A program made the translations under genes and the position numbers. Of a stretch of DNA of 64,000 nt, positions 13,065-64,000 are shown piece by piece. The DNA lies in NCBI GenBank assembly GCA_036172245.1, contig JAYWIR010000107.1, positions 1-64,000 on the forward strand. The letters are read 5' to 3'. How positions within the stretch are numbered: position 1 is the first letter of the stretch; every line of letters begins with the position of its first letter. Under the pieces are notes generated by a model. The model did no database searches and had not been told where the DNA came from. It saw only the letters and a list, made by a program, of their open reading frames with translations. The DNA is from Raillietiella orientalis (taxonomy: Eukaryota).

Positions 13065-14775
13065 CTGCAGTAGGTGGTGACGCGCCTACCTGTTGGCCCT
13101 CCTCCTTGGGGGCGGTTTTGTTCAGGCAAGGCGACTGCAGGGAGGGTTTTGCCCCCCTGCTAACCCTCCTCCATGGGTGTGGCCTGCTCGACAGCTTCCG
13201 AGCGTGGGAGTTCCTCCTCCGGGGTTTCCACGCTGGCGACCGCTTCCGTCTTCTCCTTGCTAGTGGAGGGGAGGCGCCTCCTGGGCTTCTGGGACTTGGG
13301 TCTCGACTTCCTGGGGGTGCCTCCGAGGGGGAGTATGTGCTTCCGGCCTCCAGGTCCAACTCACCGGGGGGGTCTTCTTTGCCGGAGCCGGCATTCGCAC
13401 GGCCTTGCGAGAAGAGTTCTCACTCTCGACCAGCGTGGCCGCGAGCTCATCCGCCGCCTGCGCGAAGGCGGCTTCCTCGCTGTCGGGTCCCGCGTCGCAC
13501 TGCTCACCCTCTGTTTGCACAGAGGGTTCGCCGTCGCGAGCCTCGGACGCAGCGTAAACGACGAGGGGAGGCTTGTCGCCCCGGGTGGCCGCCTCGGGAA
13601 TGGCAATGCGTTCATGTGCCACCGTGCACTGCCGCAGAGTTTCTGAGAGCGGCCCAGGTTTTTTCGCCTTACCGGCCGGCTTTTTCTCTTCTTTCGCGGG
13701 TTCCTCGTTCGGAACCTTTTTTTCCTTTCGGATTTTTACAGCCTGCCAGCCCTCTTCCCCTTCCACTACTTTGGAAGTTCTTTCCTCCGAATTATGCGTC
13801 GAAGTTTGAGGGCTGGCAGCCTCTGCATGTCACTTTCAACTTTAGGTCTTGCGTCCGTCTTCACCTTTTTATCTGCGCCTTTTTGGCGGCAGGTGGCAGC
13901 GGAATGAGGCGCTTGGGGCACACGCGTTGAACGTGGCCACGCTCCCCGCACAGGTGGCACTGTATATTCGGGCATCTCTTGCAGAAGTGTCCTACTGTGT
14001 AACAGTACCCAGAGTAGCGGGGTTTCCCTACGTACCAGAGGTCTACCGGCTCTTGGCAGCCCTACAGCTTGTGAGATAGCGCTCCACCCTCTTTCACGGT
14101 GACACGCGCGGCGGTCTGCCCCCTGAAAAGGCTATTGTAGTCCTCGAAGGTAGTGGCGTTTGGCCACAGCGCGTGTACCTCACCGAACTACTTCAATTCT
14201 TCACCAACCGCAGACCGCGTCATGCGGCTGGTGATGCCGGTCAGATATTCCACTACGGAGCGGTCCATCGTGACTGGCAGGATCTTGTGCCCATCCATGC
14301 TTAGCAGGGTGATGATCAGAGTTTGCGCCAAGGTAATGTCCTTACAGACAACCTCGACGCGTTGACCCCCACTAAGCACAGATAAGCCGTCAAGATCCTT
14401 TTCTAGTACGTTGGCGTTCTGCAGAGCCTTCGTAAAGGCGCGTGCAGTTCGCCCATCAAAAAGATTGCCTACCTGGTATATTAAGCTAGGCTTGTACCAA
14501 GCTGCCCGGTAGGCGGCCATCTCCGCCATGGCTTCCGCGCTAGGCGCGGCCACCACGGCCCTCCATGCTCTCGGCGAGGCCGGGGATGACCTAGGGACGG
14601 ATGCTCCATATCCAGTAGGCTGTGGGGGTGGACAAGCCTACCACACACCTACCTCCATCGTGATGTCCTCAGGCAAGGCTGCTATCGGACATCAACGATA
14701 TTCCGCCCTAGAAAACCACTGAGATGAAGCCTACCTACTACTATCTTGGGAGCGAAGGAAAAACACGTCCGCCCA
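13065..14775 (-). mobile_element. Element B: 5' end and frameshifted ORF1 of a subfamily II LINE; 3' part missing
   Basis: MVAAPSAEAMAEMAAY...YQVGNLFDG, EEGWQ.VK and AADELAATL motifs in broken ORFs 14188..14556 and 13260..13766; GGACGTGTTTT at 14770-14760. Confidence 0.85.
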
Positions 14776-14783
14776 GCGGTGGT

Positions 14784-16896
14784 TGACACCCGGGTACGCC
14801 CGGGGCGTTTATTGGAAAAACTCTACATAAACGTGGTACGAGGCCCCACTAACGGCCACACAACACCGGACTTGCCGGGACGCCGGGACGCAGCCCGGCG
14901 TGAGGCTCCTCGGCAGTGGAGAAGGATAGGGATCAAAACAAAAAGAAAAAATAAAGATGAAGAAAACAAAAAAAGAGTTCGCAGGGAAAGGAAGGGATCA
15001 CAATCCACTGAGAGGAGGGCCCATCCTTCGCAGGATGCCCTCCAGGTCCATCTTCATGCTTCCCAGATGGGGACATCTCGCAGCTCTCTGCATGAAGCAG
15101 ACTGCATACGGGATGACATCTCTCGCGTTGGCTTCCACTCCTTCGTCGCGAATGTCGCTCCAGGCCGCCACGATGCCCCGGATGCAGCAGAGGGCTGCGA
15201 GGGCTGCGGCGGGCTGCAGGGCGTCCCGCACGAAGAGGGGCCGAAGAACGTCTCTGGGCGCGCTGCCCATTGGGAGCCCGAGGGTCGTTCCGAACCGTTC
15301 CCACAGGGGTCGGAGGACAGCACAATCAACAAGTATGTGGAGGAGCGAATCCCGCTCTCCGCACCTGGCACACGCAGGATCCACAGCTCCCCTCGTCCAG
15401 TGGAAGCGGCGCGCGTTGCCGGGTACACCCCAGTGCAACAGCAGCAGCGCCGACTCTTGCCACTTCAGGGGGAGAAGCCTGGATCCTATTAATATTGGGG
15501 GCCACTTCAGGTCATCCGTCGGGATGCCGAGCAGCTCGCCCCATCGACGAAGTCCACGCGGGAGGGCACTCGGGGTCGTGGCATCTGCCAGTTCTCCCAT
15601 GGTCCAACCGCTCATCTTCTTTTCCTTGCCTGCGATTCGGCAGGAGACTTGCCACTTTGGCTTGCGGCCGCTGGTTAAAGCCCTTCGTAGAAAGGGCAGG
15701 GTCGAAGCTAGAGTGGTAGTCTCCGCCCCCGTGCTCCTGGCGGGACACTCCAGAGTATTCCACAGTGTGCAGCAGGCGTTGGGGCCGAATCGCAGGCGGT
15801 TCCAGTCCGGGGAAGTCTGGAGGTTCAGCTTGGCCCACTTCGCAACGGATTCCTCCATCCAGGCGGAGAAGTTGGCATGGCTGCATACCGTCCAGCCGTT
15901 GTCTCTCACCAGGGCTTCCATGCGCCCACGGAGAAGGCCGCATCTTCTGACCTTCCTGCCAGAGCACAGAAGGTACGACGCGAGTCCTTGCGTCCTGGAC
16001 ACACGGCAGGCGAGGATGCGGGCCGGAACGCACCAAGAGGTGCACCATGACTTTGCTGCGATGCCGAGGGTGCGCCATCGCAGCTGTATGTCCAGGCGCT
16101 CCAGCGTCAGGAGGCCGAGACCGCCGTCCCGACGAAAAGCGTATAAGTCATCTAGAGGCACACTAGGCCTCCCGCTGCCCCAGAGGGCGATGCGCAGTAG
16201 GAACTTGGTCCTCTTTTTAATGTCACGGGGGACGGGGCAAACAAAAAGCAGGGGGCGGAGGATGGAAGCCGCGAACGCGTTCCACACCGTAGCCCGTTCC
16301 GGCAGAAGGAACTTGCCTTCCAGGAACGGGACGATTGCCAACTCTACCTTTTGGAGACGACCTGACCGGGACTTCTGCCTCGCAGAAGTCCCCCAACGGG
16401 ACACCCCTGTACTTCAGGTACCTGGCCGCGGGGATCCCCAAGCAAATCCAGTCGGGCCGTCCGACCCACGTCGCACCCACCGGTACGACCGACGACTTCG
16501 CCTTGTTTACCCGAAGTCCAGTCCCACGACTTAGCAGGTCGAAGAAATCCTCGACTTCGGCTGCCGGGGCGGACATGGGCAACATGAGCAGAAGGTCGTC
16601 GGAGTATGCTGCTACGGCGGGCGTTCCGGGGCACGAGCTTAGCAGGGCAGCCAAAGTCACCCTGTATGCTCTCAGCACCAACTCAAAGTAGGTGCTAAAG
16701 AGCAGGGGACTGAGGCTATCGCCCTGACGTATGCCCGCCGCAACGGCACGCCGTACACCTGTGGGCTAGAAAAGCAGATGTTAACGATGGCGTTGCGCCA
16801 GCACGAGCGTAGGAAGGAGAGAAGGGAGGGTGGGAAGCCAGTGCGACCCAGGAGCTCCAACAGTACCTCCTGGTCAACGCATTCGACCGCCTTGTG
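14784..16896 (-). mobile_element. Element B2: 3' half of a LINE (RT from HKA onward, C-terminal Zn motif, 3' terminus); frameshifted
   Basis: HKAVECVDQ, AYSDDLL and CARCGERDSLLHILVDC motifs; terminal AATAAA plus hairpin at 14813-14786. Confidence 0.88.
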
Positions 16897-18808
16897 CGCT
16901 CTAGTGCGGACGTGTTTTCTCGGTGTTCCTTGTGCCAAGAAGTCTCCCCCAGTACTAGCGTCGTGTGGGTCGGTGGTCGATCAGGCAGCGATGCCTGACG
17001 CGACCACCAGGGATGCCAGGGGGCAACGTCAACGCCGCCCACAGAGGCGATGGAGGTGGGGGCATCCGCCCCAACAGAATCGGTCCCCGCTGCAGCGCCG
17101 GCGTGGATCGCCGTTGTGTCGGCGCCATCGCCATACCAGAGATCGACAATTCCGCCGCGCCAAAACCCGCGGCGGAATTGTCAGCCTATGTGGAGGAGGG
17201 GTATAACCCCTCATTGTTCTACAAGGTAGGCAACCTCTATTCTTTAGAGAGCGCGCGCGCCTTTTCGAAGGGCATGCGCGCTGTTGATGTGAAAGAGAAG
17301 GAGCTCAGCGCTATGACCATCTGCAGCGGGGGTCAGTACGCTAAGGACATCTGCAAGCATGCAGAGCTGGCCCAACGACTGCTCAAAACCCCTGTTGTGA
17401 TGGGAACGCGCAGGCTCCTCCCCGCTACGGCGGACCGCAGCATGGTGGTCCACCTGTTAGGTGTTACCGCGCGGATGCGCAAGGAACAGGTTCGCGCCGC
17501 GTTGGAGGAATACGGAACGGTCCACACGCAGTGGACGAAAGTTAGTCCTTTCGAGGACTACACGGGGCTGCAACACGGCCTCACGGCTGCGCTCGTGACC
17601 GTTCGGGAGAGCTGCACTCTTCCCCACAAACTGGTGATCGAAGGCGAAATCGTCGACCTCTGGTATGTGGGGAAGCCGAAATACTGTGGCTTCTGCAATA
17701 CGTCGGGCCACCTCAAAAAGAGGTGTCCCAACGTGCAGTGCCAAGTATGCGGCACAATGTGTAACACGAGGGAGGTGTGCCTTAAAGCAGCAGTGTGGGT
17801 GGTTTCCAAGAGAAACCTTAAAAAACGCGCCCGGCTTCTGCAGAAAAGGCTGGCGGCGAAAGCTACCGCGAAGCCTGTGCCACCCGCGCCCTAGGCCCAG
17901 ACCGCACCCAAGACCCCGGCGACCAACGCCGAAAAAGTTGAGAAAGCCGGCCAGGAGAGTGGGTGGCAATTGGCAACGGCCAAAAAATCAAAGAAGGAGA
18001 GGAGATTAGAGAAAAAAATCGCGTACCGCCAGAAAAAAAAGCAGGCAAGCGAGCAGATAAAAGAATGCAGCGTTGTCGTGGAACGTATTCCGGACCGCTG
18101 CGAGAAAGAAATCGCCGCTACCGACGACAACCCCTCAATTGACTCCGTCAACAGCGATTTGAGCGAGCCGGCGGCGGCGACCGCGCGTCATCGACACCAC
18201 CATCGATGACGTAGCCTTCGCGCAAGCTGCGGAGGAACTGGCTGCCTCGTTGCAGCCAGAACCCTCAAAGGCTGGAAAGAAGGCCGTAAGGCGTCCGGTC
18301 TCCACTCAGGTGTCCCCTACTTGCGACCCCGAGGTGGAAGCCGGAAGCTCAGCCTCCATTTCCACGGCAACGCGCAAGAAGGCTGGACGTAAGTCCACAA
18401 AGCCAAGGAAGCTCGTCTCCCCCGTCAAAGAGGAAGAGATGGCTTCCACAAGCGAGGGTCCCATGAGCGTGGGAAACTCTCGGGACCCGTCGCCCGAGAG
18501 ACTCCCACGCACGGACACGGAGGAGATGGAGGGGGTGGAGGCCGATCAGGTGCCTCAGGTGTCTGAGAAGGTCGAAACCACCATGGACATCCCGCCCGCC
18601 TCGCAAGAGGCGGGCTCCCCCACACCTTAATCTTCCCAGCAGTAATGCCGGGAATCTCCTCCCGCCGTCGTCTCCGCATCGCCGTTTGGAACGTGAACGG
18701 CATGACAGACGCCGGCAGGAGACAAGACATGGCAACCCTTCTGGAGTCCTACGACCTTGCGCTGCTGCAGGAGATCCACGTGATCTCCGCAGAACAAGCG
18801 CAAGAGAT
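16897..18808 (+). mobile_element. Element C: subfamily I LINE, 5' end, disrupted ORF1 and first 55 codons of ORF2
   Basis: GGACGTGTTTT at 16908; CGFCNTSGHLKKRC knuckle; TAATG overlap at 18643-18647; WNVNG and LQEIH EN motifs; interrupted after EQAQEI. Confidence 0.9.
16908..16918 (+). promoter_or_regulatory. Conserved 5'-terminal GGACGTGTTTT motif (DPE-like); representative of 9 copies
   Basis: Also at 14770-, 31168-, 33479-, 34914-, 40639-, 52475- (AGACGTG), 55603+ and 61184+. Confidence 0.7.
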
Positions 18809-20517
18809 TTCTCACCCGATCACGCCGGGACGTTTATTCCATATAACATAAACAAAAAACAATTATACAAAATCAACCAGCTGGGAACCAAAGTCCCAAC
18901 CGACGACTGAACAAGAATGAAGAGAATATTGCTGGCACGCAGGCCAGAGTAACAGTTTTGCGAACGGTGTGGGGGGGCGGGGAACACAAAGGAACCAAAA
19001 TAAAATAAAAACAATGAATAAGGAGGACGGGATAAGGGTCTTTGGGATCGCTCTGGAAGAAACGGGGATAAAAGCATGGGCACGGGAAATTTTACCGAGC
19101 GAACGGGTACGGGGCATGGGTGGGCGAGAGGTCGCAGGGGTCACCGGATTACGCCGTTCTCAAAGGTGTGTAAACCGGTGATGTCCTCTTTCACCTTGTC
19201 ACCAAGATGACGGCACCTTGAAGCCGTCTCCATGAATTGAGTTGCAAGGAGGTGAGTTTCCCTTCGCTGCGCTGACAACTCCAGGGCGTAGCGGGCCTTC
19301 ACGATGGCGCGAACGCAACACATGGTTGCGACAGTCGCGCCAACCGAAAGTCCATTTCTGCTGAAGAAGCGCCGAAACACATCAATGGCAGTGCCTCCTT
19401 GTGGCATGATGGCCCAAGTAAGCCTTCGCCACAGTTAACGGCGGTCACCGCAGTCCAGCAAAAGGTGCGGAAAAGACTCGGTCTCTCCGCACCTTAAACA
19501 GTTTGGCAAAGCAGTTCCCCCGGAAACGATGCTTCGCTGCCTATTACAGTGCAATGCACAATGTAAAAAGAGCAGCACATATTGTTTCCAGTTTAGGGGG
19601 AACACGGAGCTGTCCAAACAAACGGGGGGAACCACTATCTCTCCGGGGGGCACACTTAAATGCTTGCTCCACCGAAGCAGGCCCTTCGCCCGATTCCGAG
19701 GAGTGGCGGCTTGCACCAGCTCCTTTGTCGTCCAGCTGCCGAGGAGCTTACTGACTCCCGCTATTTTGCAGGAGAACTCCCATTCCGCCGGTAGGCAACC
19801 GTCGTTGCTTGCCCTGAGGGCAGACACCGCTGCGGCGAGTGGTGTGGCGGCCAGACGATCCGACAACTTCTTGTCCTGCATGACTTCGTCCATTTGATGA
19901 CTGAGGAGTAGTCGCAGGCGCCGAAGATCTTCCGGGCTCATTCCTTCGGAAGCTGCAACGATGAAAAAGATTCCTGCCGCCATGTTTTAATGTTCATGGG
20001 GCGGCAGGATATCCAGCTTTGGACTTCCAGCAGTGAGAACAGTGCCTCAGCGGAAAGCCATACCCTATTCTGGTGTGCCGAAAGTGGGGTAGCAACGAAA
20101 GCAGTCCCTCGCTTCCCGTGCAGCGCCTCAGTATAAGGCGTGCGGGTAAGCACCACGCCGTACACCACAGCTTGGCACAGAGCCGCAGCATGCGAAACTG
20201 CTCCTGCAGTTCGATGCTGTTTAAGTCGAGGATGCGCAAGCCTGCATCCTGACGCGGAGCCACTAAGTCTTTAAGTCTAACACGGGATCTTGCAGCGCCC
20301 CACAACGCTTTGCGTAGAAGGCGCTGCGGCCAGACTTTGACTTCCTGGGGGGGGTGGACAAACAAAAAACAGGGGGCGGAGGAGGGGGGCAACGAAGGTG
20401 TTCCAGATGCAGGCCCGTTCCGGCAAGACGAAGTCGCCTCCTGAAAACAGGCCAAGTGCACGCTCTGCCTTCCGAAGGCAGTCCGACCACGCTTCTGAGA
20501 TGCAGAAGTTGCCCAAC
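18809..20517 (-). mobile_element. Element K: 3' part of a subfamily III LINE (post-RT ORF2 and 3' terminus), decayed
   Basis: PLGNFCISEAWSDCL, CLRCGETESFPHLLLDC; AATAAA plus hairpin at 18838-18812. Confidence 0.85.
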
Positions 20518-21914
20518 GGGATCACAGTTGCTGATGGGGCCGTTGCATCCTTTGCAGGAAGCCGGCTAGCTCCTTCTGTATTCCCGGATCCAGGTGGGGC
20601 CGTAACGGCGAGCCTGCAGATAGGCACGTTCGTTACGTTCCCCGTCCCCGAATCCCGCAGGTAGGCGGTGCAGAGGGAACTGGTCGCAGAACTCCTGGAC
20701 CGACCGTTTAAAGCGGTCCCAATCCTGAAGTGTCCGCATCCTAAAGCTCCGTATAAACGTGCGGAGATGTTCCGTCGCGTCCGGGAGCTTCAGTTAGTCC
20801 CCTGGCAAACGTCACGCTGACGAGGGGGGGCCCCTGTCGCGCGGATGGATTCCAATCACGATTGGTCGATGGTCGGACAACTCGCACGGCAACTTGCAGC
20901 GCCTGTCCACACGAGTGCACAGGTGCTCGTCAAGGAACACGTGATCGATGTTGTCCTCCATTCCTGGTACACTGGTCAACAAATTACAAGTGTGCACCGC
21001 CGCGCACTCCTCGTTGACCAGGTCACGCTCGTGATTCGGTCTATCCGGTTTCAGACGAACGTTAAAATCGCCTGCAACCAGATTGCATTCCGCACGCCTG
21101 CCTCGGTCAACCAGTCGCGATGAAGGGCAAGGAAAACTTCTTTCCTGGCCCTCCTGTTCTTCAGGTCCGCTTCGCTCGGGGCGTAAACGTTCGTAACGAT
21201 CAGCTCGATCGAGTCGGACCAACTGAGAGTCAGCTGGCCGACACGACCGTGATCCTCGAACCGCACTCCATGGGCGGCAGCTTCGATGGCAGGCCAAAGC
21301 AGGAAGGCGACACCACAACTTCTCGATGTTCCACACCGATACTACAGCCGCAATCCGGAGATGCCTTCGATCTCCTGCGCTTGTTCTGCAGAGATCACAT
21401 GGATCTCCTGCAGCAGCGCAAGGTCGGACGATACTAGAATGGCGGCCATGTCTCGTCTCCCGCCGGCGTCTGTCATGCCGTTCACGTTCCAAACGGCGAT
21501 GCGCAGACGACGGCGAAAGGAGATTCCAGGCATAACTGCCGGGAAGATGACGGTGTGGGGGAACCCGCCTCTTCTGAGGCGGGTGAGATGACCATTAGGG
21601 TTTCCGCCTCCTCAGGCACCTTGGGTACCTTTCCGGCTTCACCCCCTCCATCTCCTCCGTGTCTGTGCGTGGTGGTCTCTCGATTGACGATTCCCAGGAT
21701 TCTCCCACGTTCATGGCACCCTCGCAGTTGGAAGTCATCTCCACGCCTTCGACCTCGAGAGGGGCTTTCCAGGGTTTGCTGGACTTGGTTCCAGCCTTCC
21801 GGCGGGGTGCCGCGGAGATGGAAACTTGGTTTCCGGCCTGCCCTTCGGGGTCGGAAGTTACCGACTCCTCGGTGGAGGCAGGACGCCTCACTGCCTTTTA
21901 TCCAGCCTTGGAGG
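20518..21914 (-). mobile_element. Element D (downstream part): ORF1 end, EN domain, then an internal deletion to the ORF2 C-terminal 84 nt
   Basis: MPGISFRRRLRIAVWNVNG, GDFN and SDH motifs; ...YLQARRY joins directly to PHLDPGIQKELAG...HQQL* at ~20602. Confidence 0.82.
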
Positions 21915-22131
21915 TTTACACCCGGGTACGCCCGGGGCGTTTATTTTTTAAAAAAACAACTCTACATCCGCGGTACAAGGCCCCGCTCACGGCCATATGC
22001 ACTGGACCTGCCGGGACGCCGGGACGCAGCCCATCGTAGCGTTCCTCAGCAGCGAAGGGGGATGGCGATAAAACAAAAAGAAAAATGAAAAACATAAACA
22101 GACAAAAAGAAGTTGGAGGGCAGGGAAGGGA

Positions 22132-48237: not shown

Positions 48238-48250
48238 GTCTTCCCCTTTT

Positions 48251-51709: not shown

Positions 51710-51880
51710 TTCATCCTGAAGAGAATAGAAGACGACGCCCGGGACCAAACAGCAGGAAACCCACCATGAGTGCAGAACTTGTGAGAACCCAAGGACTTCA
51801 TAGTGTTAAAAAAAAGTGCTTATGGTATGGATGAGATTGTAGTGTGAATGGTTTTATAGAAAAATTTTAGAAAAATAAAT

Positions 51881-52485: not shown

Positions 52486-52632
52486 AGCGCAAAAGATCGG
52501 ACAGATCTCCGGAGGGCGGCTATGGTACAGGTGTGGGAGACCGAAAAGTTGCGGTGTTGCCTACCTGATTCGGCCAGGCGTCAAGGCCGCGGCTCGGGGC
52601 GTGCGGTTCGACGATCACGGTCGTGTAAGCCA
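52486..52632 (+). pseudogene. P0: EN fragment of a subfamily I element (possible continuation of C)
   Basis: AQKIGQISGGRLWYRCGRPKSCGVAYLIRPGVKAAARGVRFDDHGRV follows on from where C stops (EQAQEI). Confidence 0.8.
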
Positions 52633-55580
52633 TTCACACCCGGGTGTGCCGGGGCATTTATTTCTTGGAAATAAAAATACATGGAATATCGCGTGGCGAA
52701 CTCGAAGGTTCACCACTCCAAAACAGCTTGCTGGTTACCGGCTCCATGCCGGAGAGGTCCTTCCGATGCGCGGGGATGGGAAATAAAGAAAAACAAAAAG
52801 AAACAAAAAGTTCAAATGTGGGGGAGGGACCAAATGTTGTAGGGGTGGGAGGGCCGGGAAGGGATCACGGTGCGCGTGGAAAGGTCCTCTAGATCCTATT
52901 CAGGATCCGCACAAGCTGAGTCCTTTCAGCGCCCAAGTGGCGCCACTTGCAGACACTGCGCGCGAAAAGGCGAGTCCAGTGTAAGGCGTTGCCGGTTGGC
53001 TGACGCCTTCTTCTGGTGGCGTTCCAAGCCGCCACTATTCCTCTGATGCAGCAGAGGACTGCTACACTAGGGGGCAGGGACAAGGCGTCACTACAGAAGA
53101 GGCGCCTGAAAACGTCCTTCGGGCCGCATCCACGCAAGTCCAGGATCGCCGCGAGACGATCCCACAGAGGGCGGAGGGCGCTACACTCAAGGAGAAGGTG
53201 GAGGAATGTTTCTTTTTCCCCACACCGGTCACAATTGGGATCCACAGCCCCCCGGGTGGTGTGGTGCAGGCGTGCTTTGAATGGTAATCCCCAGAGTACC
53301 ACAAGCAACGCCACATCCTGCCATTTCAGAGGAAGGGATGCACTGTTCCAGGAAGCTGGGGGCCACTTCATCTCCTCCGGAGATAGTCCGAGTAGCTCAC
53401 CCCAGCGTCGAATTCCGTTGGACGGGACGCTCGGCGTCGCAGCGTCAGCTAGCTGCCGAGATGTCCACGCCTTTATCGATTGTGTCCTGCCGCCTATAGT
53501 GCAGGACACGGTCCATTTCCTCTGCTCGCTACTGTCCCTGGCATTCACAAGGAAGGGCAGCACTGGGGCGAGGGGGGTTATCAAGGCCCACAGAAGCTTG
53601 TCGTGGGACTGCACGATCTCCTGCAGCGTCCAGCGGGCGTGCCTTTTCATACAAGTGTTCCTTGTGCCCGCCGGAACGTGGATCTTTTCCCAGGTGGAGA
53701 CTGACTCGTGCAACCAGGCGGAGTAGTTCCCTGGGAGGCAGGAGATCCAGGCGTTCTCCCGGACCGCAACGAAGATGCGTCGCAGCATAGAGCCACAGTA
53801 TGGTCTTCTGCAGACGCGCGCAGACAGAAACGACAAAAGTCCGCCGATTCCGCAGGCTCGTTGGGCCAGGAGGCGTGCTGGAACGCACCAAGGCGTGTCC
53901 CACAATTCCGCCACAAGGGCAAGAGTCCTGAATCCAAGTTGTAGTTCCATGCGCTCCAGCGTAAGTACGCCAAGTCCACCGTCCTTACGTGGAGCGCACA
54001 AGTCTTTGAGCCTCACACGGGACCTCCCTTTGCCCCAAAGGACTGTCCTCAGGAGGCCCGCTGCTCGTTTTCGGATAAAATAAGGGGCGGGGCAAACAAA
54101 AAGTAGGGGGCGAAGGAGGGGAGCCGCGAACGCGTTCCACACCGCGGCCCGTTCCTGCAAGTAGAACTTGCCTTCTTGGAACGGACTGATCGCCAACGCT
54201 GCCTTTTGGAGACGGTCGGACCAGGCTTCTGCTGCGCAGAAGTCCCCCAACGGTACGCCGAGGTACTTGAAGCACCTGCCCGTGGGGATCCCCAAACGGA
54301 TCCAGTCCGACCGTCCAGCCCACGCCGAAGCGACGAAGACCATGGACGACTTCGCCCTGTTCACCTCCAGGCCCGTCCCGCGGCGCAGCAACTCGAAGAA
54401 GTCCTCGAGTGCACTCGCCGGGGTGGACCCGGGAAGCAGCAGCTGAAGATCGTCTGCATAGGCCGACACGGCAGGCGTGCCGGCACACGAGCTCGGCAGG
54501 GCTGCCAGAGTTACCCTGTATGCCCTCAGCACCAACTCAAAGTAGATGCTGAAGAGCAAGGGGCTCAGGCTGTCACCCTGCCGGATGCCGCGGCGTACGG
54601 GCACGCCGTACACGTGCCGGCCGCTGAAACCAATATTGATTGACGCGTTGCGCCAGCAGGAGCGCAGGTAAGATTGAAGCACGGCAGGGAAACCCATGCG
54701 TTCCAGGAGCTCCAGAAGGAGATCCTGGTCGACGCAGTCGAATGCTTTGTGCAAATTGACCGCGACGGCAAAGGCTCCCGCCGAGTCCATCCCACCCTCT
54801 GCCCGATCTTCTTGGTCAGAGGGGGGCGCGAGGCTCCCTTGACCGTCCTGTGCAACGCGTTGTCGCAACTGCCACCATGAGCTGGCGAGGAGCAGGTTGG
54901 CCTCCATGGTTCGTCCGGGAACAGCATAGGTCTGCTCGGGACTCACCACGGAAGCGGCCACCCGCCCCAAACGCTCAGTCCACAACTTAGCATACAACTT
55001 TGCGTCCGCATTCACTACTGTGATGGGACGCCAGTTGCCAATGTTGCGTAAGTCTCCTGACTTCGGCAGGAGACGTACTTTAGCTGACCGGAACGAGGCT
55101 GGAACTTCGCCGTGTTCGCGGATCAGCGCACTTAACCTGAGCACCAGGGGGGCCAGCTCTGGCGCGAAGCGATGGTAAAACTCCGCGGGCAGGCCGTCCT
55201 CCCCTGGTGCCTTCCTTCTCTTGAGCCTGTTGATGGCGGAGATGATCTCCGCCATCGTGAACGGTTCCGCCAATCTGGAACGGTCCTCCTCCTTGAGTGC
55301 GGGAGCACCATCCGGCAGCAGGCGCTGCGCGAAATGGCGCTCAGGTGTTAGTGGCGCGTACAAGGAGGAATAAAACTCCCGCACGATGCGGCTTACCTGG
55401 GCTGGGCTGGAGCGTTCTTGGCCCTGATGATCCAGCAGGCAGGCCGAGCCTGACTGCCAGGCCTGCCTCTCCGCCTCAGCCTTAAATTCAGCCAGGCGAC
55501 GGACGTCGGGACGCCGGGAATAACGGCGCGCCTGGAGGTACGCCCGCTCGTTCCTGACACCCTTACCGAAGCCCGTGGAC
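52633..55580 (-). mobile_element. Element M1: ORF2 from GFG through RT and Zn motif (open to 52889) plus 3' terminus
   Basis: ORF 52889..55750 from GFGKGVRNER onward; YADD; CDRCGEKETFLHLLLEC; hairpin at 52662-52636. Confidence 0.9.
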
Positions 55581-55621
55581 GCGACCAAAAGACACGTCCG
55601 ATGGACGTGTCTTTTGGTCGC
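55581..55621. repeat. Perfect 19-bp inverted repeat (3-nt spacer) formed from the 5' end of element P1
   Basis: gcgaccaaaagacacgtcc-gat-ggacgtgtcttttggtcgc. Confidence 0.97.
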
Positions 55622-55698
55622 TCCGCCAACGCCTGTCTGGGAAGCAACCGGAGTTTTTTTAGTGTAGTCAGGTGTTAAGTGTGGGTTGTCGGTGTCCG

Positions 55699-57450
55699 AT
55701 GGCAGCCGTGCCAGAGGACACGGCGATGGATGTGGTTGTGGGGGAGGCAAGTCCTACCACAGGACCTACATCTATGGGGGCAATAGTCCCTGGAACGTCT
55801 TCGCAGCCGGCGAAGACTTGGAGTGAAATGGTCGCCGCCCCCAGTGCGGAGGCCATGGCAGAGGAAGCCGCCTATCGGGCCTCTGAATACAAGCCATCGC
55901 TTGTATACAAGGTAGGCCCTTTGTTTGAAGGAAACACGGCGCGCTCTTTCAGCAGAGCGCTACAAAATGCTAATGTCCGTGAGGAAGATCTGGACGGTCT
56001 GTGCGTGCTCAGCGGGGCGCAGCGGGTTGAGCTGGTGTGCAAGAGCATCAGCCTAGCCGATCGCCTTATAAATACCCCGCTGATCATGGACGGCCGTAAG
56101 ATCTTCCCGGTGTCAATGGACCACTCGGTAGTGGTCCACTTGACAGGAATATCCAAGCGCATGACGCGCACTGCCGTAAAAGCAGAATTAAGTAAGTACG
56201 GGGACGTACACGCGCTGTGGCCGAAGCCCACAATCTTTGAGGGCTACGGACGCCACTTCGGGGGCTTGGCTGCGGCACGCGTAACCCCAAAAAACGAAGC
56301 GAAGCTACCCCACAAACTTGAGGTCGCGGGAGAACTAGTAGACCTCTGGTATGCTGGCAAGCCACGGTATTGCGGCTACTGCGATGCGGTCGGACACATC
56401 CGTAAGAGGTGCCCGAACATCGTATGCTACTTGTGCGGGGAGAAGGGACACGTCCGTCGCGTGTGCCCTAAACGCCCCACCCCAATTTCCTCGGCCGCCA
56501 AAAAGGCGCAAGCGAAACGCGCGGGGAAAGAAAAATTAGAAAACCGTGAAACTGGCCGAGAAAAGCTGCCAATAACCCAAGCTTCAAGCGCAGCATCGGA
56601 GAAAAATCTTCCCGAAACCGCAGAGGGTGAACAGGGCTGGCAGCTAGTCAAAGCCAAAAAAGAAAAAAAGGACAAGCATGTCCCGAAGAAAGGAGAGAAG
56701 GCGGCGGCCGGAACAAAAGCTCAATCCGTGTCGCGCGTAAAAACTCTCCGAGAATGCACGGTTACGCTGGAGCGCATTGACGTTCCCGCCGACACCACCG
56801 GAGGCGATACGGCTTCGATCGATTTTCCCGCCGCGACGAATGCGCGCGAAAACCCACCCCCCGTTTGCGAAGAGGGTCAGCCGGACGACAAAATCGCCGA
56901 AACCAAGGACGCAGCCTTCGAGAAGGCCGCCGAGGAGCTTGCGGCAACGCTTGCCGAACGCGAGAACCCTTCGCGAAAGGGGTTGCGTAGGCCGGCAGCG
57001 GCTAAAGTGGCCCCCGCAGGTGAGTCGGACCGGGAGGCCGGAAGTGCATCCTCCTCTGCGGAAGCACCACCAAGGAAAGCGGGGCGAAAATCCCAGAAAC
57101 CCCGAAGGTGCATTGCGCCTCCGCGCGAGGGGGATGCAATGGTGGAGGAACCAGTGGATGGCAGCGTGGGAGCCCAAGTCGGGCATCACCCACGTGCGGA
57201 AGCCGAAGAGGAGGCGACTCCAATGGAGGACGGTAACCAAGGGTCAGCAATGCCCTCTGAAACCGCCGAACCTGAACCACCCGCACCAATGGATGTGGGC
57301 CAACAGGTACGAACAACACCCCCTTCGCACGGGCAGCCGGAGACGTCGGCACGAAAGAAGGATGGGGAGTTGGTGGGCAAGACGCCAACCCCGTCCAGCG
57401 ACCCGCCCCAAAAGGTGGCGGGAGCTCCACCGCCAGGTTCCCAGGAATAA
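55699..57450 (+). CDS. ORF1 of P1 (two CCHC knuckles); open
   Basis: CGYCDAVGHIRKRC, CYLCGEKGHVRRVC; first ATG at 55699. Confidence 0.88.
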   Translation: MAAVPEDTAMDVVVGEASPTTGPTSMGAIVPGTSSQPAKTWSEMVAAPSAEAMAEEAAYRASEYKPSLVYKVGPLFEGNTARSFSRALQNANVREEDLDGLCVLSGAQRVELVCKSISLADRLINTPLIMDGRKIFPVSMDHSVVVHLTGISKRMTRTAVKAELSKYGDVHALWPKPTIFEGYGRHFGGLAAARVTPKNEAKLPHKLEVAGELVDLWYAGKPRYCGYCDAVGHIRKRCPNIVCYLCGEKGHVRRVCPKRPTPISSAAKKAQAKRAGKEKLENRETGREKLPITQASSAASEKNLPETAEGEQGWQLVKAKKEKKDKHVPKKGEKAAAGTKAQSVSRVKTLRECTVTLERIDVPADTTGGDTASIDFPAATNARENPPPVCEEGQPDDKIAETKDAAFEKAAEELAATLAERENPSRKGLRRPAAAKVAPAGESDREAGSASSSAEAPPRKAGRKSQKPRRCIAPPREGDAMVEEPVDGSVGAQVGHHPRAEAEEEATPMEDGNQGSAMPSETAEPEPPAPMDVGQQVRTTPPSHGQPETSARKKDGELVGKTPTPSSDPPQKVAGAPPPGSQE

Positions 57451-58252
57451 CACCTGGACTCGCCTGTCGCCGTCGGATCCGCGCGGCCAGTTGGAATGTT
57501 AACGGGCTGCGCGACGACGGAAACAGACGAGATACAGCAGCCACCTTGCGAGATTTCGACCTGGTACTTTTGCAGGAGATCCACGTGATCACCGCAAAAG
57601 ACGCCCAGGAGATCGAAACGATTGCGGGAGGGCGGTTGTACTGGCGATGCGGCGCCCGCAACACTTGTGGGGTCGCGTTCTTCCTAAAGCCAGCCATTAA
57701 CGCGGCCGTGAAGGGCGTGCGCTTTGGGGACGACGGACGGATCGGCCAACTGATTCTCAGATGGTCCGATTCGATCGACCTCATCGTCACCAATGTGTAC
57801 GCTCCTAGCGGTAAACAGGGATACCAGCAGCGCAACGCGTTACTGGAAACCTTGAAGCGCGAATGGCTGGTGGACGCGGACGTGCGAAAGGCGCATCTGA
57901 TAGCAGGGGATTTCAACGTCCGTCTGCTCTCAGATCAGCCCGGAGCACAGGGTAACGCGATCAACGAGTTGTGCGCCGCCATGCGCGCGCGCAACTTGTT
58001 GACAGAAATAAGCGGGATGGTCAGCAGCGTGGACCACGTCTTCCTCGACGAAGACCTGTGCACACGGGTCGGAAAACGAGGGACACTTGGATCGACGCTG
58101 TCGGACCATTCCCGGTTAATTTTCGAGATGCGGCCTCGCGAAAAAGGACCGCCATCCAGGGACTGGCGTCTGCCGGGAGACTGGACGCGACTCTCAGGTG
58201 CGAAGGAACACCTTCGCGAATACCTGAGAGGCGTCACGCTCTGGAATCTCCA

Positions 58253-61172
58253 TTGAAACCCGGGTGCGCCGGGACGTTTATTCTCACGAATAAACCTGTA
58301 CAACCTGTGACTGGACCAGTAGCCCAGCCACGCCCTGGAAAGATATAGCTTGCCGGGCTACCGGTGCGCAGACCGACGCGGTCGACCTCAGCAGCAGAGG
58401 GGAGGAAGAACGAAACAAAAAGAAAACAGAAAATAAACAAAAATCAGGGAGGGAGCGGGAAGGGATCACACTCTGCTGGGAGGGTCCGTCATCCTCTGGA
58501 GGATGCCGGCAAGCTGTTTCTGCTTGTGTGGTTCCAGATGGGGCCATCGCGTCGCCATCCTGAGGAAACGGGCGGCATACACGTTGGCATCCCTGTCGCT
58601 GGATCCTCCCGTCGCTTTGCTCCATGCCACGACGATCCCGCGTAGGCAGCACAGGGCTGCAAGCGAGGCCGTTGGAGGCAGGGCGTCACGGACGAAGAGG
58701 GGGCGCAAAGCGTCTCTAGGGTTGCCTCCGGGGATCCCCAGGGCTGCGGCAAAGCGTTCCCACAAGGGACGGAGGGCAACACAATCCACTAACAGGTGGG
58801 GGAGGTATTCCCTCTCCCCGCACCTGACACAATTAGGGTTGACACCCCCCCGCGTCCAGTGGTGTCGGCGGGCGTTGCAAGGAAGCCCCCAATGCAACAC
58901 CAGCAGTGCCGACTGTTGCGACTTCATGGGGAGGGTGCGCGAGTCCATGAGCACCGGGGGCCACTCGAGATGTTCCTCTGGAACATCCAGTAGCCCTCCC
59001 CAGCGCAACAGTCCATTTGGGGTGGTCCTCGGGGTCGCAGCGTTGGTGAGCTGACCCGTTCTCCAATCCCCGATCTTCTTTGCCCTGCTGGCGATCTTGA
59101 CAGTAACCTCCCATTGTGCCGCGACGTCGCTGCCCAGATGTTCCCGTAGGGTAGGCAGTACCGCAGCAAGGGAGGTTCTTTGTGCCCACGCTCTCCTTCG
59201 GGGATTCTCGATGATTTCTCGGAGCGTGCGGTGGACATGCGGCCAGAACAGAGCTATTCGCTCGTGTTGCGGGCTCTGCTCCTGAATCATCGCCCACGTG
59301 CGGACGGTTTCCTGCAACCAGGCAGGACCGTTCGCGGGGCGTACGAGGATCCGCGCCGAGTTGTTCTTCACGAGCTTGGCCGCCCTCCGAAGTTGAAGTC
59401 CGCAGTGGCAGATGGGGCTTCGGAGTGCAAAGTAGGACGAGAGTCCCGCATTGCCGGTGGCCCCCTCGACGAGGAGACGTGCAGGGAGGCACCAAGGGGT
59501 GCACCAATTTTCTGCCATAAAGGCAACAACTTGGAACTGGAGCTGTAGCTCCAGCCGCTCCAACGTTACGAGGCCCAGACCACCATCCCGACGAGAAGCG
59601 CACAAGTCCGAAAGACGGACTCGGGGCCTCCCTCTGCCCCAAAGGGCGATCCTCAGGAGGTCCTTCGTCCTCTTCTTTGACTCCGCTGAGGGGGGGCTAG
59701 CAAAAAGCAAGGGGCGAGGGAGGGGAGCCGCAAACGCGTTCCACGCCGCGGCCCGTTCATGCAGGAAGAACCTGCGGTCCTGGAACGGGCCGATCGCCGC
59801 CTGAGCCTTCTGAAGGCAGCCGGACCACGCTTCCGCAGGGGAGTAATCCCCCAACGGCACACCAAGGTACTTGAAGTACCTCACCGTGAGGATCCCCAAA
59901 CGGACCCAGTCCTGCTGCCCTGCCCACGCCGCTCCGACTGGCATTACGGACGACTTCGCCCTGTTCACCGTCAGTCCTGTTCCCCGACTCAGCAGGTCAA
60001 AGAAGTCCTCGACCGCCGAGGCCGGGGTGGACATAGGCAGCAGCAGCAGCAAGTTCGTCCGCGTACGCCGAAACCGCAGGCGTACCGGGACAATCGCACG
60101 GCAGGCGCGCCAGAGTCTTCCTGTACGCTCTCAGCACCAATTCGAAATAGGCGCTGAAGAGCAAGGGGCTGAGGCTGTCTCCCTGCCGTATGCCGCGTCG
60201 CACCGGTACGCCGTACACGGTGGATCCACTAGAAAGAACATTAATAAGCGCGTAGCGCCAGCTGGAGCGCTGGTAAGCCTGCAAAGAGGCCGGGAATCCC
60301 AAGCGTTCCAGAAGCTCCAGAAGGAGATTCTGGTCGACGCAATCGAATGCTTTATGCAAATCGACTGCGACCTTGAGGGCTCCTCTCCCCTCCCGACCAT
60401 CCCGTCCCCCACCGACGGACGCACCGGAATTCCGGTTGCTTATTATGTTCCTTCCTTGTTGGAGCTCTAACCATGTGGAAGCGTGGAACAGGTTCGCCTC
60501 CATACTTCGCCCGGGATCAGCATATGTCTGTTCCGAGCTGATGAAGATGTTGGCGACCCGTCCCAGGCGCTCTGCCCACAGCTTGGCTAGCAACTTGGCG
60601 TCCGCATTCACTATTGTGATGGGACGCCAGTTGTTCATGCTCCTAAGGTCTCCTCCCTTAGGGAGGAGCCGCACCTTTGCTGAACGAAACGAGGTGGGAA
60701 CGTCACCTGTTTCGCGGATCAGCAAGGTGAGCTGATGTACCATGGGAGTAAGCTCTGCCGCGAAAGTTTGATAAAACTCCGCAGGCAGGCCGTCCTCTCC
60801 TGGAGCCCTTCGCCTCTTGAGCTTTCCGATGGCCGAGATGATCTCGCCCATCGTAAAAGGCTCGACGAGGTTCCTTTTCTCCTTCTCCCCGATTGCTGGA
60901 GCACCTTCCGGAAGCAGGAGTCGTGAGACAGTATGCTCCGAAGGCGCCCTGGCGTACAGGGAGGAGTAAAATTTCCTCACTATCCTGCGTTTCCAAGCGA
61001 GAACCGAGTGCTCCCGGCCCTGGTCGTCCAGCAAGCTGGCCGACCCGGATTGCCAGGCTTGCTTCTCGGCTCCCGCTCGATACTCTGCTAACCTGCGCAT
61101 GTCGGGGGTTCTCGCGTAACGTCGGGCCTGAAGATAGCACCTTTCGTTACGCGGCCCCTCCCCAAATCCCTC
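58253..61172 (-). mobile_element. Element M2: ORF2 from GFG to the 3' terminus, one frameshift just after YAD
   Basis: ORFs 59997..61409 (from GFGEGPRN) and 58466..60052; hairpin at 58282-58256. Confidence 0.9.
58256..58282 (-). terminator. Conserved 3'-terminal AATAAA plus CCCGG-loop-CCGGG hairpin; representative of 8 copies
   Basis: AATAAACGTCCCGG-CGCAC-CCGGGTT; equivalents at ~14786, 18812, 21918, 25272, 37002, 41711 and 52636. Confidence 0.8.
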
Positions 61173-61272
61173 TCCTCGAGAGCGGACGTGTTTTTCCGGC
61201 GCTCCGCGAACGAGCAGCGGAAAGCGGTTTTTTTTTGGTTCAGTGTGTGCTTTTTCACATCGTTGGTGTCCG

Positions 61273-63027
61273 ATGGCATCGCTGCCAGAGTACACCACGA
61301 TGGAGGTAGTCGTAAGGGAGGCTAGCCCCCCCCCCCCACGACCTACAGAATCAGCGGCATCCGCCCCGGAATCGCCCTCGTCGCCCAAGACGAGGAGCTG
61401 GAGCGCCATGGTCGCCGCGCCTAGCGCGGAAACCTTGGCTGAGCAAGCGGCCTACAGGGCCTCCGGATATAAATCATCCCTGGTTTATAAGGTAGGAAAC
61501 CTGTTCGACGGTCGCACCGCGCGTGCCTTTAGCAAGGCACTACAGGAATTTCCCGTGCGTGAGGAGGATCTTGACGGCCTCGCCGTACTCAGCGGGGGGC
61601 AACGCGTGGAGGTCGTCTGCAAAGACGTAGCCCTAGCGCAGCGCCTCATCAACACCCCGCTGAATGTGGCTGGCCGAAAGATCCTACCCGTTAGCATGGA
61701 CCGCTCCGTAGTGGTTCATCTAACGGGGATCACGAACCGCATGACGCGTTCTGCGGTGAACGCGGAATTGAGGAAATACGGAGATGTGCACGTGCTGTGG
61801 CCAAAGCCAACCATTTTAGACGGCTATAACAGCCTCTTTGGTGGCCAGGCAGCAGCGCGTGTCACTGTGAACGAGGGTGCCGGGTTACCCCACAAACTGG
61901 AGGTCGGGAAGGAGCCCGTCGACCTCTGGTACGTGGGGAAACCCCGCTATTGTGGCTACTGCGATGCAGTAGGGCATGTGCGCAGGCGGTGCCCGAATAT
62001 CGAGTGCCACTTGTGCGGGGAAAAGGGACACGTCCGTCGTGTGTGCCCTAAACGCCCCACCCCGGTGCCACCTGCTGCCAAAAAGGCACAGGCGAAAAAG
62101 ATGAATAAGGTCGAAAGACCTCATCGCGAGAATGGCCGGCCCCAGCAGCCTTCTCCTCCTCCTCGAACCCAGGCGGCGGCGGAAAAAACCGCGAAAGACG
62201 CGGGCAAGGAAGAAGGATGGACGCTCGTAAAGGCCAGAAAAGAACCCAAAAAGGGTTCGCAAGAGAAGGCGGAGAAAAAGACGGTCGCGAAGGCGAAAAA
62301 ACCTGGTCCGCGATCTAAAACTCTCCGCGAGTGCTCGGTAGCACTGGAGCGCATCAGCGTTCCCGAGGCTGCCACCCGGGGCGACGAGCCTCTTCTCGCC
62401 GTTTCCGCCGCGCCCGACGTTCGCGACGGCGAACCCTCTGTTTGCACAGAGGGTGAAACGCGCGACGCGCTCGCCACCGGCGAGGACGCCGCCTTCGCGA
62501 AGGCGGCGGAGGAGCTCGCGGCCACGCTGGCTGAGCGTGAGAACCCCTCGCGCAAGGCCGTGCGAAGGCCGGCTCCAGTAAAGAATGCCCCCGCAGGTGA
62601 GTTAGAACTGGGGGCCGGAAGTACATCCTCCTCCTCGGAAGCACCCCCCCGGAAGACGGGACGCAAGTCCCAAAAGCCGAGGAAGCGCCTCCCCTCCACG
62701 AACGAGGAGGAGAAGCAGGAAGTCGCCGGCAGCGAGGGAATCCCGGAGGGAGAGCTCCCTCGCGCGGAAGCGGTCGAGCAGGACACCCCCATGGAGGAGG
62801 GTGAGCAGGGGGGCGAAATCCCCCCTGCCGTCGCGGACCCTGAGGAGCCCACCCCTATGGAGGAGGGCCAGCAGGTAGGCGCGACCCCACCTGAGGGTGA
62901 ACCGCCCGACGCGCCGTCACCGATGGAAGAGGGTGACCAGGTGCTAGAGGCACCTGTCCCTCCTCCTCCACCTAGCGTCCCGCCCCAACAGGTGGCGGAC
63001 GCCGCACAGCCGATTTTCCAGGAATAA
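61273..63027 (+). CDS. ORF1 of P2 (two CCHC knuckles); open
   Basis: CGYCDAVGHVRRRC, CHLCGEKGHVRRVC; first ATG at 61273. Confidence 0.88.
   Translation: MASLPEYTTMEVVVREASPPPPRPTESAASAPESPSSPKTRSWSAMVAAPSAETLAEQAAYRASGYKSSLVYKVGNLFDGRTARAFSKALQEFPVREEDLDGLAVLSGGQRVEVVCKDVALAQRLINTPLNVAGRKILPVSMDRSVVVHLTGITNRMTRSAVNAELRKYGDVHVLWPKPTILDGYNSLFGGQAAARVTVNEGAGLPHKLEVGKEPVDLWYVGKPRYCGYCDAVGHVRRRCPNIECHLCGEKGHVRRVCPKRPTPVPPAAKKAQAKKMNKVERPHRENGRPQQPSPPPRTQAAAEKTAKDAGKEEGWTLVKARKEPKKGSQEKAEKKTVAKAKKPGPRSKTLRECSVALERISVPEAATRGDEPLLAVSAAPDVRDGEPSVCTEGETRDALATGEDAAFAKAAEELAATLAERENPSRKAVRRPAPVKNAPAGELELGAGSTSSSSEAPPRKTGRKSQKPRKRLPSTNEEEKQEVAGSEGIPEGELPRAEAVEQDTPMEEGEQGGEIPPAVADPEEPTPMEEGQQVGATPPEGEPPDAPSPMEEGDQVLEAPVPPPPPSVPPQQVADAAQPIFQE
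62785..62945 (+). repeat. Three ~66-nt coding repeats (PMEEGxQ, 22-aa period) at the ORF1 C-terminus
   Basis: TPMEEGEQGG / TPMEEGQQVG / SPMEEGDQV; the same triplet is in E (31730-31885) and degenerate in P1. Confidence 0.8.
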
Positions 63028-64000
63028 CACCTGGGCTCGCCTGTCGCCATCGAAACCGCGTGGTTAGTTGGAACGTCAACGGGCTGCGCGACGACGGCAA
63101 CAGACGAGATACGGCCGACACCCTGCGTGACTTCGACCTGGCCCTGCTGCAGGAGATCCACGTGATCACCTCGGCAGACGTCCAGGAGATCGAGGCGATC
63201 GCGGGGGGTCGACTGTATTGGCGATGCGGCGCCCGCAACACCTGCGGGGTCGCGTTCTTCGTCAAGCCGGCCATCGACGCTGCCGTGAAGGGCGTACGCT
63301 TTGATGACGACGGTCGGGTCGGTCAGCTGATTCTCAGCTGCTCCGACTCGATCGAATTGATCGTCACGAACGTGTACGCCCCGAGCGGAAAAGGGGGATA
63401 CAGCGACCGTACCAGGCTGCTGGAAACCCTGAAACGCGATTGGCTGGCAGACACGAATGTGCGGAAGGCACACCTGATAGCTGGAGTCTTCAATCTCCGT
63501 CTGCTGTCAGGTGAGCCCGAAGCACCAGAACGCACGGCCAACGAGTTGTGCGCTGCCATGCGCACGCGCAACTTGTTGGCAGACGCGGAGGGAATGGACC
63601 GCAGCATCGACCACTTCTTCCTGGATGTCGACCTGTGCTCGCGGGTCGGCAAACGGGGAAAAGTTGCGTCGACGCTGTCGGACCATTCCAGGATCATCGC
63701 CGAGGTTTGCCCGCGCGACAAAGGACCCCCGTCCAGGGCGTGGCGGCTGCCTGGGGACTGGACGCGGCTCTCAGGTGCGAAAGAACGCCTTCGCGAATTC
63801 CTGAGAGGCGTCACCCTCCGCAGTCTCCAAGACTGGGACCTCTTCAAGGCCTCGGTCCGCGAGTTCTGCGAGGAGTTTCCCCTGCAGCGCCTGCCCCCCG
63901 GATTCGGGGAGGGGGCTCGGAACCAGCGGGCTTATCTACAGGCCCGCCGGTACGAGAGGACCCCGAATGTCCGTCGCCTCGCGGAATATCGAGCCGGGGC

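Follow-up and report, generated by a model that had tools for sequence, protein, structure and literature searches.

The stretch of DNA analysed here (the window) comprises the first 64,000 nucleotides (nt) of contig JAYWIR010000107.1 from the Raillietiella orientalis assembly GCA_036172245.1, read on the forward strand, and contains a nest of long interspersed nuclear elements (LINEs) inserted into one another. GC content rises from ~44% at 1-12 kb to ~59% from 13 kb onward, the Pfam domains RVT_1, Exo_endo_phos, zf-RVT and zf-CCHC are found in 15 of the 18 long open reading frames (ORFs) scanned, and LINE pieces on both strands tile positions 13,072-64,000 in tblastn searches with X, a divergent LINE and the only element of the window that is fully open, and in blastn searches with reference copies (Table 1). 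These three lines of evidence bear out an earlier sequence-only reading of this DNA, which placed a LINE nest of more than 50 kb from 13 kb onward. By arithmetic from the alignment map, direct homology supports all of 13,072-64,000 except ~1.4 kb, namely the 5' region of copy N (45,572-46,215 and ~51,880-52,465) and a U4 small nuclear RNA (snRNA; 46,216-46,352). ORF1 homology was sought in the 5' region of N and none was found, and positions 51,881-52,480 of N have no protein homology support.

We placed all junctions on uninterrupted reference copies, with H5 and H3 coordinates counted in the 5' and the 3' half of copy H, respectively; map coordinates are good to about 2 nt. Pairwise DNA identity between copies ranges from 55 to 86%, and because of this spread the nest is, as judged by sequence comparison, made up of several divergent LINE sublineages and not of one family. 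Most copies carry few defects. Frames of 1,207, 954, 787 and 753 amino acids (aa) are open in the GC-rich part, including a defect-free frame of 954 aa in M1, and the ORF1 products of P1 and P2 are 595 and 629 aa long. The sense strand of the nest LINEs is A-rich (AT skew), like that of L1. The nest is also present at positions 1-1,092, to the left of a low-GC block (1,093-13,071; ~12 kb, 43-49% GC) that splits it. This block contains no direct or inverted repeats of at least 40 nt, no Pfam domain except one reverse transcriptase (RT), and no copy of the nest LINE family, and its flanks, a_h (~H3 1460) and A (H5 1705), are not two halves of one host.

The nest elements are L1-type LINEs, with an ORF2 that combines an apurinic/apyrimidinic endonuclease (APE) and an RT, a CCHC-bearing ORF1, and target-site duplications (TSDs). 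Exo_endo_phos is accompanied by RVT_1 in X (E 8e-13 and 6e-33, respectively), I and N; M1 has zf-RVT, and zf-CCHC is found in the ORF1 products of P1 (E 7e-6) and X (1.6e-4) and, more weakly, in P2 and H. Termini, TSDs and junction positions can be observed directly. The window holds nine element 5' ends (a motif scan gave ten hits, one of them an inverted copy), which are conserved, read ...GCGGACGTGTTT in the nine copies and are recognisable by the sequence …GGACGTGTTT…. Eight 3' ends read AATAAACGYCCCGG..CCGGGTNNNAA, a short GC hairpin with five invariant pairs, so that covariation was not found among the eight ends. None carries the poly(A) tail of L1: all eight stop 20-25 nt past AATAAA with only 2-4 A. 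When the 3'-terminus pattern was used to scan metagenomes, none of the eight loci retrieved had a LINE protein match, and seven were one unrelated GC-rich sequence. Two elements are complete and flanked by exact TSDs, H by AGCCTTGGAGG (11/11 nt identical, at 21,899-21,909 and 33,487-33,497) and I by GATTGAAAT (9/9 nt identical, at 25258-25266 and 31175-31183). At the junction of M1 with P1 (55581-55621) we also observed a perfect 19-nt inverted copy of the P1 5' end, separated by a 3-nt spacer, which resembles a hairpin-like footprint.

Junctions recur at the same positions of different hosts. Site 1 lies in the RT motif-A codons A-V-D-L-H-K-A-F-D, where the host starts exactly at H3 1237 in three places (C/E, 16,896/7; D/G, 34,925/6; a_h/a_i, 865/6), each time adjoining the 5' end of an antisense E/G-type element. 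One 3' junction falls at H3 1250 (37,032/3), with the end of J against the 3' end of D. Together, the junctions at H3 1237 and 1250 delimit a 14-nt target, CATAAAGCNTTCGA, and therefore point to a 14-nt staggered cut. Insertions at site 1 are all antisense, and the 14-mer is 11-13/14 identical between copies; it is nearly invariant in the family because it encodes K-A-F-D. At site 2, M1 and M2 both start at H3 410-412, M1 abutting P1 and M2 abutting P2 at their 5' ends. The overlap at site 3a, just 3' of the APE 'LLQEIH' codons, measures 17 nt and is used by the 3' end at E/F and the 5' end at P0/N, and the two copies hit there have a common sublineage-specific sequence at the site. Site 3b is a 26-nt overlap, used by the 5' end at L/J and the 3' end at P0/M1. 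Two positions are used once, H3 341 (M2 into P1) and ~H3 866 (N into L). Copy I, for its part, sits in sense orientation in the H codons for the APE motif LIAGDFN, a second catalytic-motif codon block besides RT motif A.

Recurrent junctions could arise by repeated insertion or by the copying of one junction, and we accordingly compared the pairs that share a junction codon by codon. Aligning with tblastn may depress dN to some extent but leaves a third-position excess unaffected. Between C and D, differences at the three codon positions are.345,.297 and.545, with dN/dS of 0.28; dN/dS is 0.29 for M1-M2, 0.25 for P1-P2 and 0.30 for E-G (0.51 on a 170-codon piece). Equal divergence across the three positions, as under neutrality, was not found in any of these junction-sharing pairs, and the third-position excess therefore indicates that the copies were still functioning elements while they diverged, and not DNA duplicates in decay. 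The inserts at site 1 (E, G and a_i) belong to a single clade, with identities of 74.5-80.9% among themselves and of no more than 55.6% to the seven other 5' parts. The copies nearest to their hosts lie elsewhere: H is 78% identical to C, M2 is 74% identical to D, and I and M1 come closest to a_h, at 64%. A maximum-likelihood tree of seven 3' parts groups C with H, D with M2 and I with N, each with a support of 100, and a C+D clade, a grouping chosen for the topology test after the identities were known, is rejected (log-likelihood cost 241, approximately unbiased test p-AU 6e-54). Because of the purifying selection, the identity matrices and the rejection of C+D, the site-1 junctions are, on sequence comparison, independent insertions and not copied junctions, and one sublineage has thus entered three different host lineages at the same base. 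Both the independence of the events and the diversity of the hosts can be observed in these comparisons.

Within the window, all 17 mapped termini (nine 5', eight 3') adjoin LINE sequence. The adjoining LINE lies in the opposite orientation at 15 of 20 junctions and in the same orientation at five, of which two belong to H in G, two to I in H and one to the tandem A/C. Counted by events, there are 12-13 antisense insertions versus two sense insertions, plus the A/C head-to-tail pair, which reproduces the 13:2 count made from the sequence by eye. The alternation at the right end (P0, M1, P1, M2, P2; +/-/+/-/+) was likewise found in the same order and on the same strands, but where the sequence-only reading named E in D and F in E as the sense pair, the sense insertions found here are those of H into G and of I into H, each flanked by exact TSDs. 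Whether there is a strong antisense bias, as the sequence-only reading held, depends on the unit of counting: by event the excess stands (two-sided binomial p=0.007 for 13:2), while with distinct target sites counted once (8 vs 2-3, p=0.11-0.23) it is not significant. The direction of the inserts may be no more than a consequence of the sites that serve as targets. The expectation that, for an antisense insert, the primer nick falls on the host sense strand agrees with the 3' end of D, which joins the sense ...TTCGA of J. A proposed production of double-stranded RNA from the nest is weakened, in that antisense copies lying side by side represent different halves without overlap, and the strongest inverted match in the window spans 343 bp at 86% identity.

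On balance, we think it probable that sublineages of these LINEs target sibling LINEs in a sequence-directed manner, with the orientation set by the site. That LINEs here target LINEs, as had been proposed, gains support from every terminus adjoining LINE sequence and from junctions recurring to the nucleotide. The nest would grow by repeated target-primed reverse transcription into pre-existing LINE copies, each sublineage nicking specific short sequences within the ORF2 coding region of a sibling lineage. An asymmetric recognised site would fix the orientation of the insert, antisense for the sites used here. At site 1, the host sense strand would be nicked after ...CATAAAGCNTTCGA (the K-A-F-D codons, …TTCGA), priming synthesis of complementary DNA, and the other strand would be nicked 14 nt upstream; nicks at fixed positions 14 nt apart are as expected of a sequence-directed endonuclease. 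Each insertion would destroy the site in its host and supply a fresh copy, so that the newest element is hit next and Russian-doll stacks build up. We infer that the endonuclease of the element, and not RNA pairing or chromatin, reads the site, and we infer the order of events.

Several observations weigh against this reading. The material is a single 64-kb window of assembly sequence alone, with two to four junctions per site, and the only simple TSD-flanked events are the sense insertions H and I. The flanks of N lie on different hosts and sites (3' at L, ~H3 866; 5' at P0, ~H5 1990), and those of G/F map to H5 2005 and H3 1237, again not one host site; since the flanks of several antisense inserts do not form one site, later deletions or rearrangements have to be assumed. 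One rearrangement joint is visible, at 20,520-20,601, with an 80-nt filler. If C and J were one element, 14-nt duplicates would be expected, and these differ at 3/14 positions. Intact site-1 sequences in H, I, N, M1 and M2 are unhit, and M2, the sister of D, is inserted at H3 341 instead of into site 1. No significant motif is common to the flanks of related inserts that occupy non-homologous positions, and no recognition motif could be defined: for H vs P1/P2 and for M1 vs M2 and N, a fraction of 0.05-0.07 of random windows, at best, reached an equal score, compared with 0.0006 for the positive control E vs G. Lastly, in the public sequencing run X1, one of the six loose ends listed (of 89) shows a G-like copy that passes into AT-rich non-LINE sequence, and targeting of LINEs may thus not be exclusive.

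A bolder form of the same idea, to which we give somewhat less than an even chance, is that of a LINE-on-LINE hyperparasitism, in which sublineages home with nucleotide precision into the catalytic-motif codons of their siblings (RT motif A, and the APE region including GDFN). Such motifs would be too constrained for the host to mutate away, and each hit would disable a potentially active competitor and offer the next target, the family thereby raising Russian-doll nests that perpetuate themselves. The arrangement would be analogous to that of homing endonucleases aimed at active-site codons.

Among the alternatives, targeting assisted by RNA homology fares best, although we consider it unlikely. 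Here, an R-loop formed by the RNA of the insert or by a transcript of the host would displace the host sense strand, which is then nicked. The geometry put forward in the sequence-only reading is sound: all antisense 3' junctions place the primer nick on the sense strand of the host, the hosts were largely intact, and possibly transcribed, when hit, and the site-1 14-mer, with 11-13/14 positions identical, makes a short guide-like pairing conceivable. The mechanism itself is unsupported, in that inserts share no more than 55-65% identity with their host lineages across the flanking kilobases, as do the hosts among themselves, too little for an extended RNA:DNA hybrid. Moreover, both strands are cut at fixed positions, at the same base in three host lineages, and an R-loop alone predicts no nucleotide precision.

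It is quite improbable that there was no targeting at all, and that elements landed at random in a LINE-rich region from which same-orientation copies were later lost by recombination. The F/G joint at 20,520-20,601 is indeed an internal deletion joint between same-orientation copies, and the orientation excess is not significant by distinct sites. However, neither random landing nor the recombination loss suggested earlier explains three junctions at one base and three other recurrent sites, and ~12 kb of low-GC sequence between the nest parts has received no copy of the nest family. Human L1-in-L1 insertions show the opposite bias, 21,559 sense vs 9,899 antisense (PMC2836564), though the sense strand is A-rich here too.

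We give even less credit to twin priming, by which an inverted 5' piece and the adjoining 3' piece would stem from one RNA and take their breakpoints from homology to an antisense LINE target. The geometry of M/P, C/E and D/G fits, in that the inverted piece meets, by its 5' end, a 3' piece that is broken off internally; J/D/G fits well (1250 and 1237), and the 19-nt inverted copy between M1 and P1 is hairpin-like. A single RNA, though, predicts that the two pieces are equally close to their counterparts, whereas C and D are 62.5% identical in DNA and 52% in protein and E and G 81% and 65-69%. Breakpoint reuse in independent events is left unexplained, and P0/M1/P1 does not conform, its breaks at H5 2142 and H3 411 lying 577 nt apart.

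An assembly artefact, with repeats collapsed or misjoined, is very unlikely. The only matching run, X1, which has 10% of the sampled window words, consists of short contigs, and its 262 matched pieces are mostly 90-95% alike (152, with 84 at 95-99% and 26 at 99% or above); they are other copies or belong to a relative. On the other hand, exact termini meet internal sites of oppositely oriented elements at the junctions, and TSDs, filler nucleotides and unique flanks are present, whereas repeat misjoins would yield collinear chimeras, and the window contains no Ns. The least credible proposal is that segmental duplication or inversion within the locus multiplied a small number of ancestral junctions, which then diverged, for although the M/P unit repeats (4.4 kb at 71%; 53,868-58,252 vs 59,472-63,829) and the locus is clearly rearranged in places, divergence is concentrated at third codon positions (dN/dS 0.25-0.38; 0.51 on the short E-G piece), frames of up to 954 aa stay open despite 29-37% divergence, and host and insert phylogenies are incongruent, with C+D rejected as a clade.

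The pieces of the nest are listed in Table 1. Two placements were tried and discarded in its construction: P0 as H3 187-341, because the alignment puts it at H5 1990-2142, and L plus P0 as one host of N, because the host coordinates would be in the wrong order.

Table 1. LINE pieces and other features of the window, in order of position (joins and identities refer to the copies and sites named in the text)
Feature	Positions	Strand	Evidence and remarks
a_i, 5' part (ORF1) of E/G-type LINE	1..865	-	60.5% identity to E ORF1 over 190 aa (tblastn, 260-799); 74.5-77.6% identical in DNA to G and E; 5' end ~20 nt short, joins a_h at site 1
a_h, host LINE RT fragment from motif-A codons (site 1)	866..1092	+	cut at ~1,092 by the T-run end of an RLE-type LINE
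A, H-type LINE 5' part, 5' end 14,775	13072..14775	-	76% identity to H5 1-1705; 5' motif; head-to-tail with C 3' end
C, LINE 3' part, RT motif A (H3 1237) to hairpin 3' end	14778..16896	-	78.5% identity to H3 1237-3357; sister to H in tree (support 100); probably the 3' half of J
E, full-length 5' end, E/G-type	16897..18808	+	antisense at site 1 of C; cut by F at site 3a
F, 3' part of I/N-like LINE	18809..20520	-	3' end joins E at site 3a
80-nt filler between F (~H3 1735) and G (H3 466)	20521..20600	-	93% identical, inverted, to D 36,736-36,815 (other pairs in window at most 86%)
G distal part, ORF2 start to H3 466	20601..21909	-	80% identity to E 18,260-18,808
H 3' part (reference H3)	21910..25266	-	both ends and TSD
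I, full-length LINE, sense inside H	25267..31174	-	TSD GATTGAAAT
H 5' part (reference H5)	31175..33484	-	H sense inside G
G 5' part, full-length 5' end, E/G-type	33485..34925	-	antisense at site 1 of D
D, LINE 3' part, H3 1237 to 3' end	34926..37032	+	3' end joins J at H3 1250; sister to M2 in tree (support 100)
J, LINE 5' part, 5' end 40,645	37033..40645	-	cut at H3 1250, codons D-L-H-K-A-F-D
L, internal LINE fragment, ~H5 2115 (site 3b) to ~H3 866	40646..41706	+	
N, I-like LINE: 3' end, ORF2, part of upstream region	41707..46215	-	71% identity to I 1956-5360; 3' terminus
U4 snRNA, complete	46216..46352	+	Rfam RF00015, 83.3 bits, model 1-138 of 138
X, divergent LINE, ORF1 495 aa and ORF2 1,207 aa, antisense inside N	46353..51880 (3' boundary approximate)	+	
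N 5' end region	~51881..52480	-	terminus 52,480 joins P0 at site 3a
P0, 152-nt E/G-like fragment, ~H5 1990-2142	52481..52632	+	76% identity to G 21,235-21,384; bounded by sites 3a and 3b
M1, LINE 3' part, ~H3 410 to 3' end	52633..55580	-	
P1, 5' end (~55,600) via ORF1, ORF2 to H3 341	55581..58252	+	
M2, LINE 3' part, H3 412 to 3' end	58253..61170	-	3' end joins P1 at H3 341
P2, full-length 5' end, antisense at site 2 of M2	61177..64000, runs off window	+	

The U4 snRNA ends 12 nt upstream of the opening of the X ORF1 frame (46365), and U4 and X both lie antisense inside N; a TSD was sought for X and none was found. Template-switch chimeras of the U6/L1 kind have been described, and U4-X looks like a chimera of this sort. 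Tx1-clade LINEs are described as gaining snRNA sequences at their 5' ends via template switching, and the heads of Tx1-related SINEU are comparable chimeras (PMC4494074). Alternatively, X may have a habit of targeting U4.

A low-GC, decayed R2/NeSL-like LINE with a restriction-like endonuclease (RLE) occupies ~1100-4200 on the minus strand. Its RT lies at 3019-3750 (RVT_1) and its RLE region at 1551-1784 (tblastn with fish and mollusc proteins), and its T-run (1094-1101) adjoins a_h, again antisense to a nest LINE. In run X1, contig depth over X (47000-51700) is 31-61, versus 0.2-13 in 19 of the 21 other bins (one D bin has 31.7), and AT-rich sequence was seen at the loose ends listed beside X pieces; copies of the X type therefore seem to be more numerous and more widely scattered than those of the nest family. 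One X1 contig joins L-like sequence (41427) to an M1-like 3' end (52637) with seven letters between them, a weak match whose shorter side has 26 letters. This contig would add one more antisense 3' junction, elsewhere along the host, from a further copy or a different genome.

If sequence-directed targeting of sibling LINEs holds, target-specific LINEs use the catalytic-motif codons of their relatives as a safe harbour, and competition between transposons becomes direct insertional knockout. Dense LINE-only islands would be explained without host-encoded targeting, with centromere cores and small-RNA source loci as candidate outcomes of such islands. The endonucleases would be natural APE-type enzymes that make staggered cuts of 14-26 nt in defined GC-rich targets, a property of interest for programmable insertion. 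This site-directed reading also offers a concrete alternative to RNA-homology models of self-targeting.

The ribosomal DNA LINEs R1 and R2 cut both strands of a highly conserved multicopy target with nucleotide precision and insert in one orientation only. The target of R1 and R2 is a host gene, and R2 uses an RLE. The nest LINEs would resemble them in the precise two-strand cleavage and the fixed orientation, but the target here is another retrotransposon's catalytic-motif codons. Nesting of transposable elements (TEs) within TEs in the human genome likewise shows hotspots along the targeted element and an orientation bias (Levy, Schwartz and Ast 2010, PMC2836564). Human L1-in-L1 insertions have a ~2.2-fold sense bias, explained by A/T-rich endonuclease sites, whereas those in the window are mainly antisense and fall in GC-rich coding motifs that differ by sublineage.

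Zepp and ZeppL, L1-type LINEs of the green algae Coccomyxa C-169 and Chlamydomonas, form clusters of nested copies via self-insertion (PMC3446292, PMC8226300, PMC9940879). Their clusters are GC-rich, 61% versus a genome average of 53% in C-169 (PMC3446292), and the window, with 59% versus 44%, resembles them in being a localised, nested, GC-rich cluster; no algal names occur among the 120 homologues listed. Zepp clusters are described as tandem arrays of mostly 5'-truncated 3' ends (PMC8226300). The window differs in having nine full-length 5' ends, mainly antisense junctions, and positions that recur to the nucleotide. Zepp also carries a long poly(A) tail, unlike the hairpin with 2-4 A at the 3' ends here.

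Members of the Tx1 clade insert specifically into DNA transposons and long terminal repeat (LTR) retrotransposons, a specificity credited to the endonuclease; examples are Tx1L in Tx1D, Tx1-Mar in Mariner-N4_AMi, and Tx1-8_Crp and Tx1-4_AMi in LTR retrotransposons, with the same kind of sequence in >20% of flanks taken as the criterion of target preference (PMC4494074). Tx1 is among the closest named proteins in the 120 homologues listed. In an IQ-TREE analysis of 22 proteins, the window copies, X and the metagenome protein P0001 (65% identical) form a separate clade (SH-like approximate likelihood-ratio test, SH-aLRT, 99), while Xenopus Tx1 groups elsewhere with a Danio protein (99), in a tree built without a curated reference set and with an unresolved backbone. 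On this quick tree, the window LINEs would not be nested within the Tx1 clade. The likeness to Tx1 lies in an APE-type element that enters a defined sequence of another transposon in a fixed orientation. The difference is in the target, which here is sibling-LINE coding sequence (RT motif A and the APE region) and not a DNA transposon or LTR element. The literature consulted on site-specific LINE-into-LINE targeting contained no insertion into RT motif-A codons, although it did not cover the original Zepp descriptions and is not proof of absence. Nested self-targeting LINE clusters (Zepp/ZeppL), transposon-targeting Tx1 LINEs and human TE-in-TE hotspots are already known. What appears to be new is that particular sublineages insert antisense, and with nucleotide precision, into catalytic-motif codons of their sibling LINEs.

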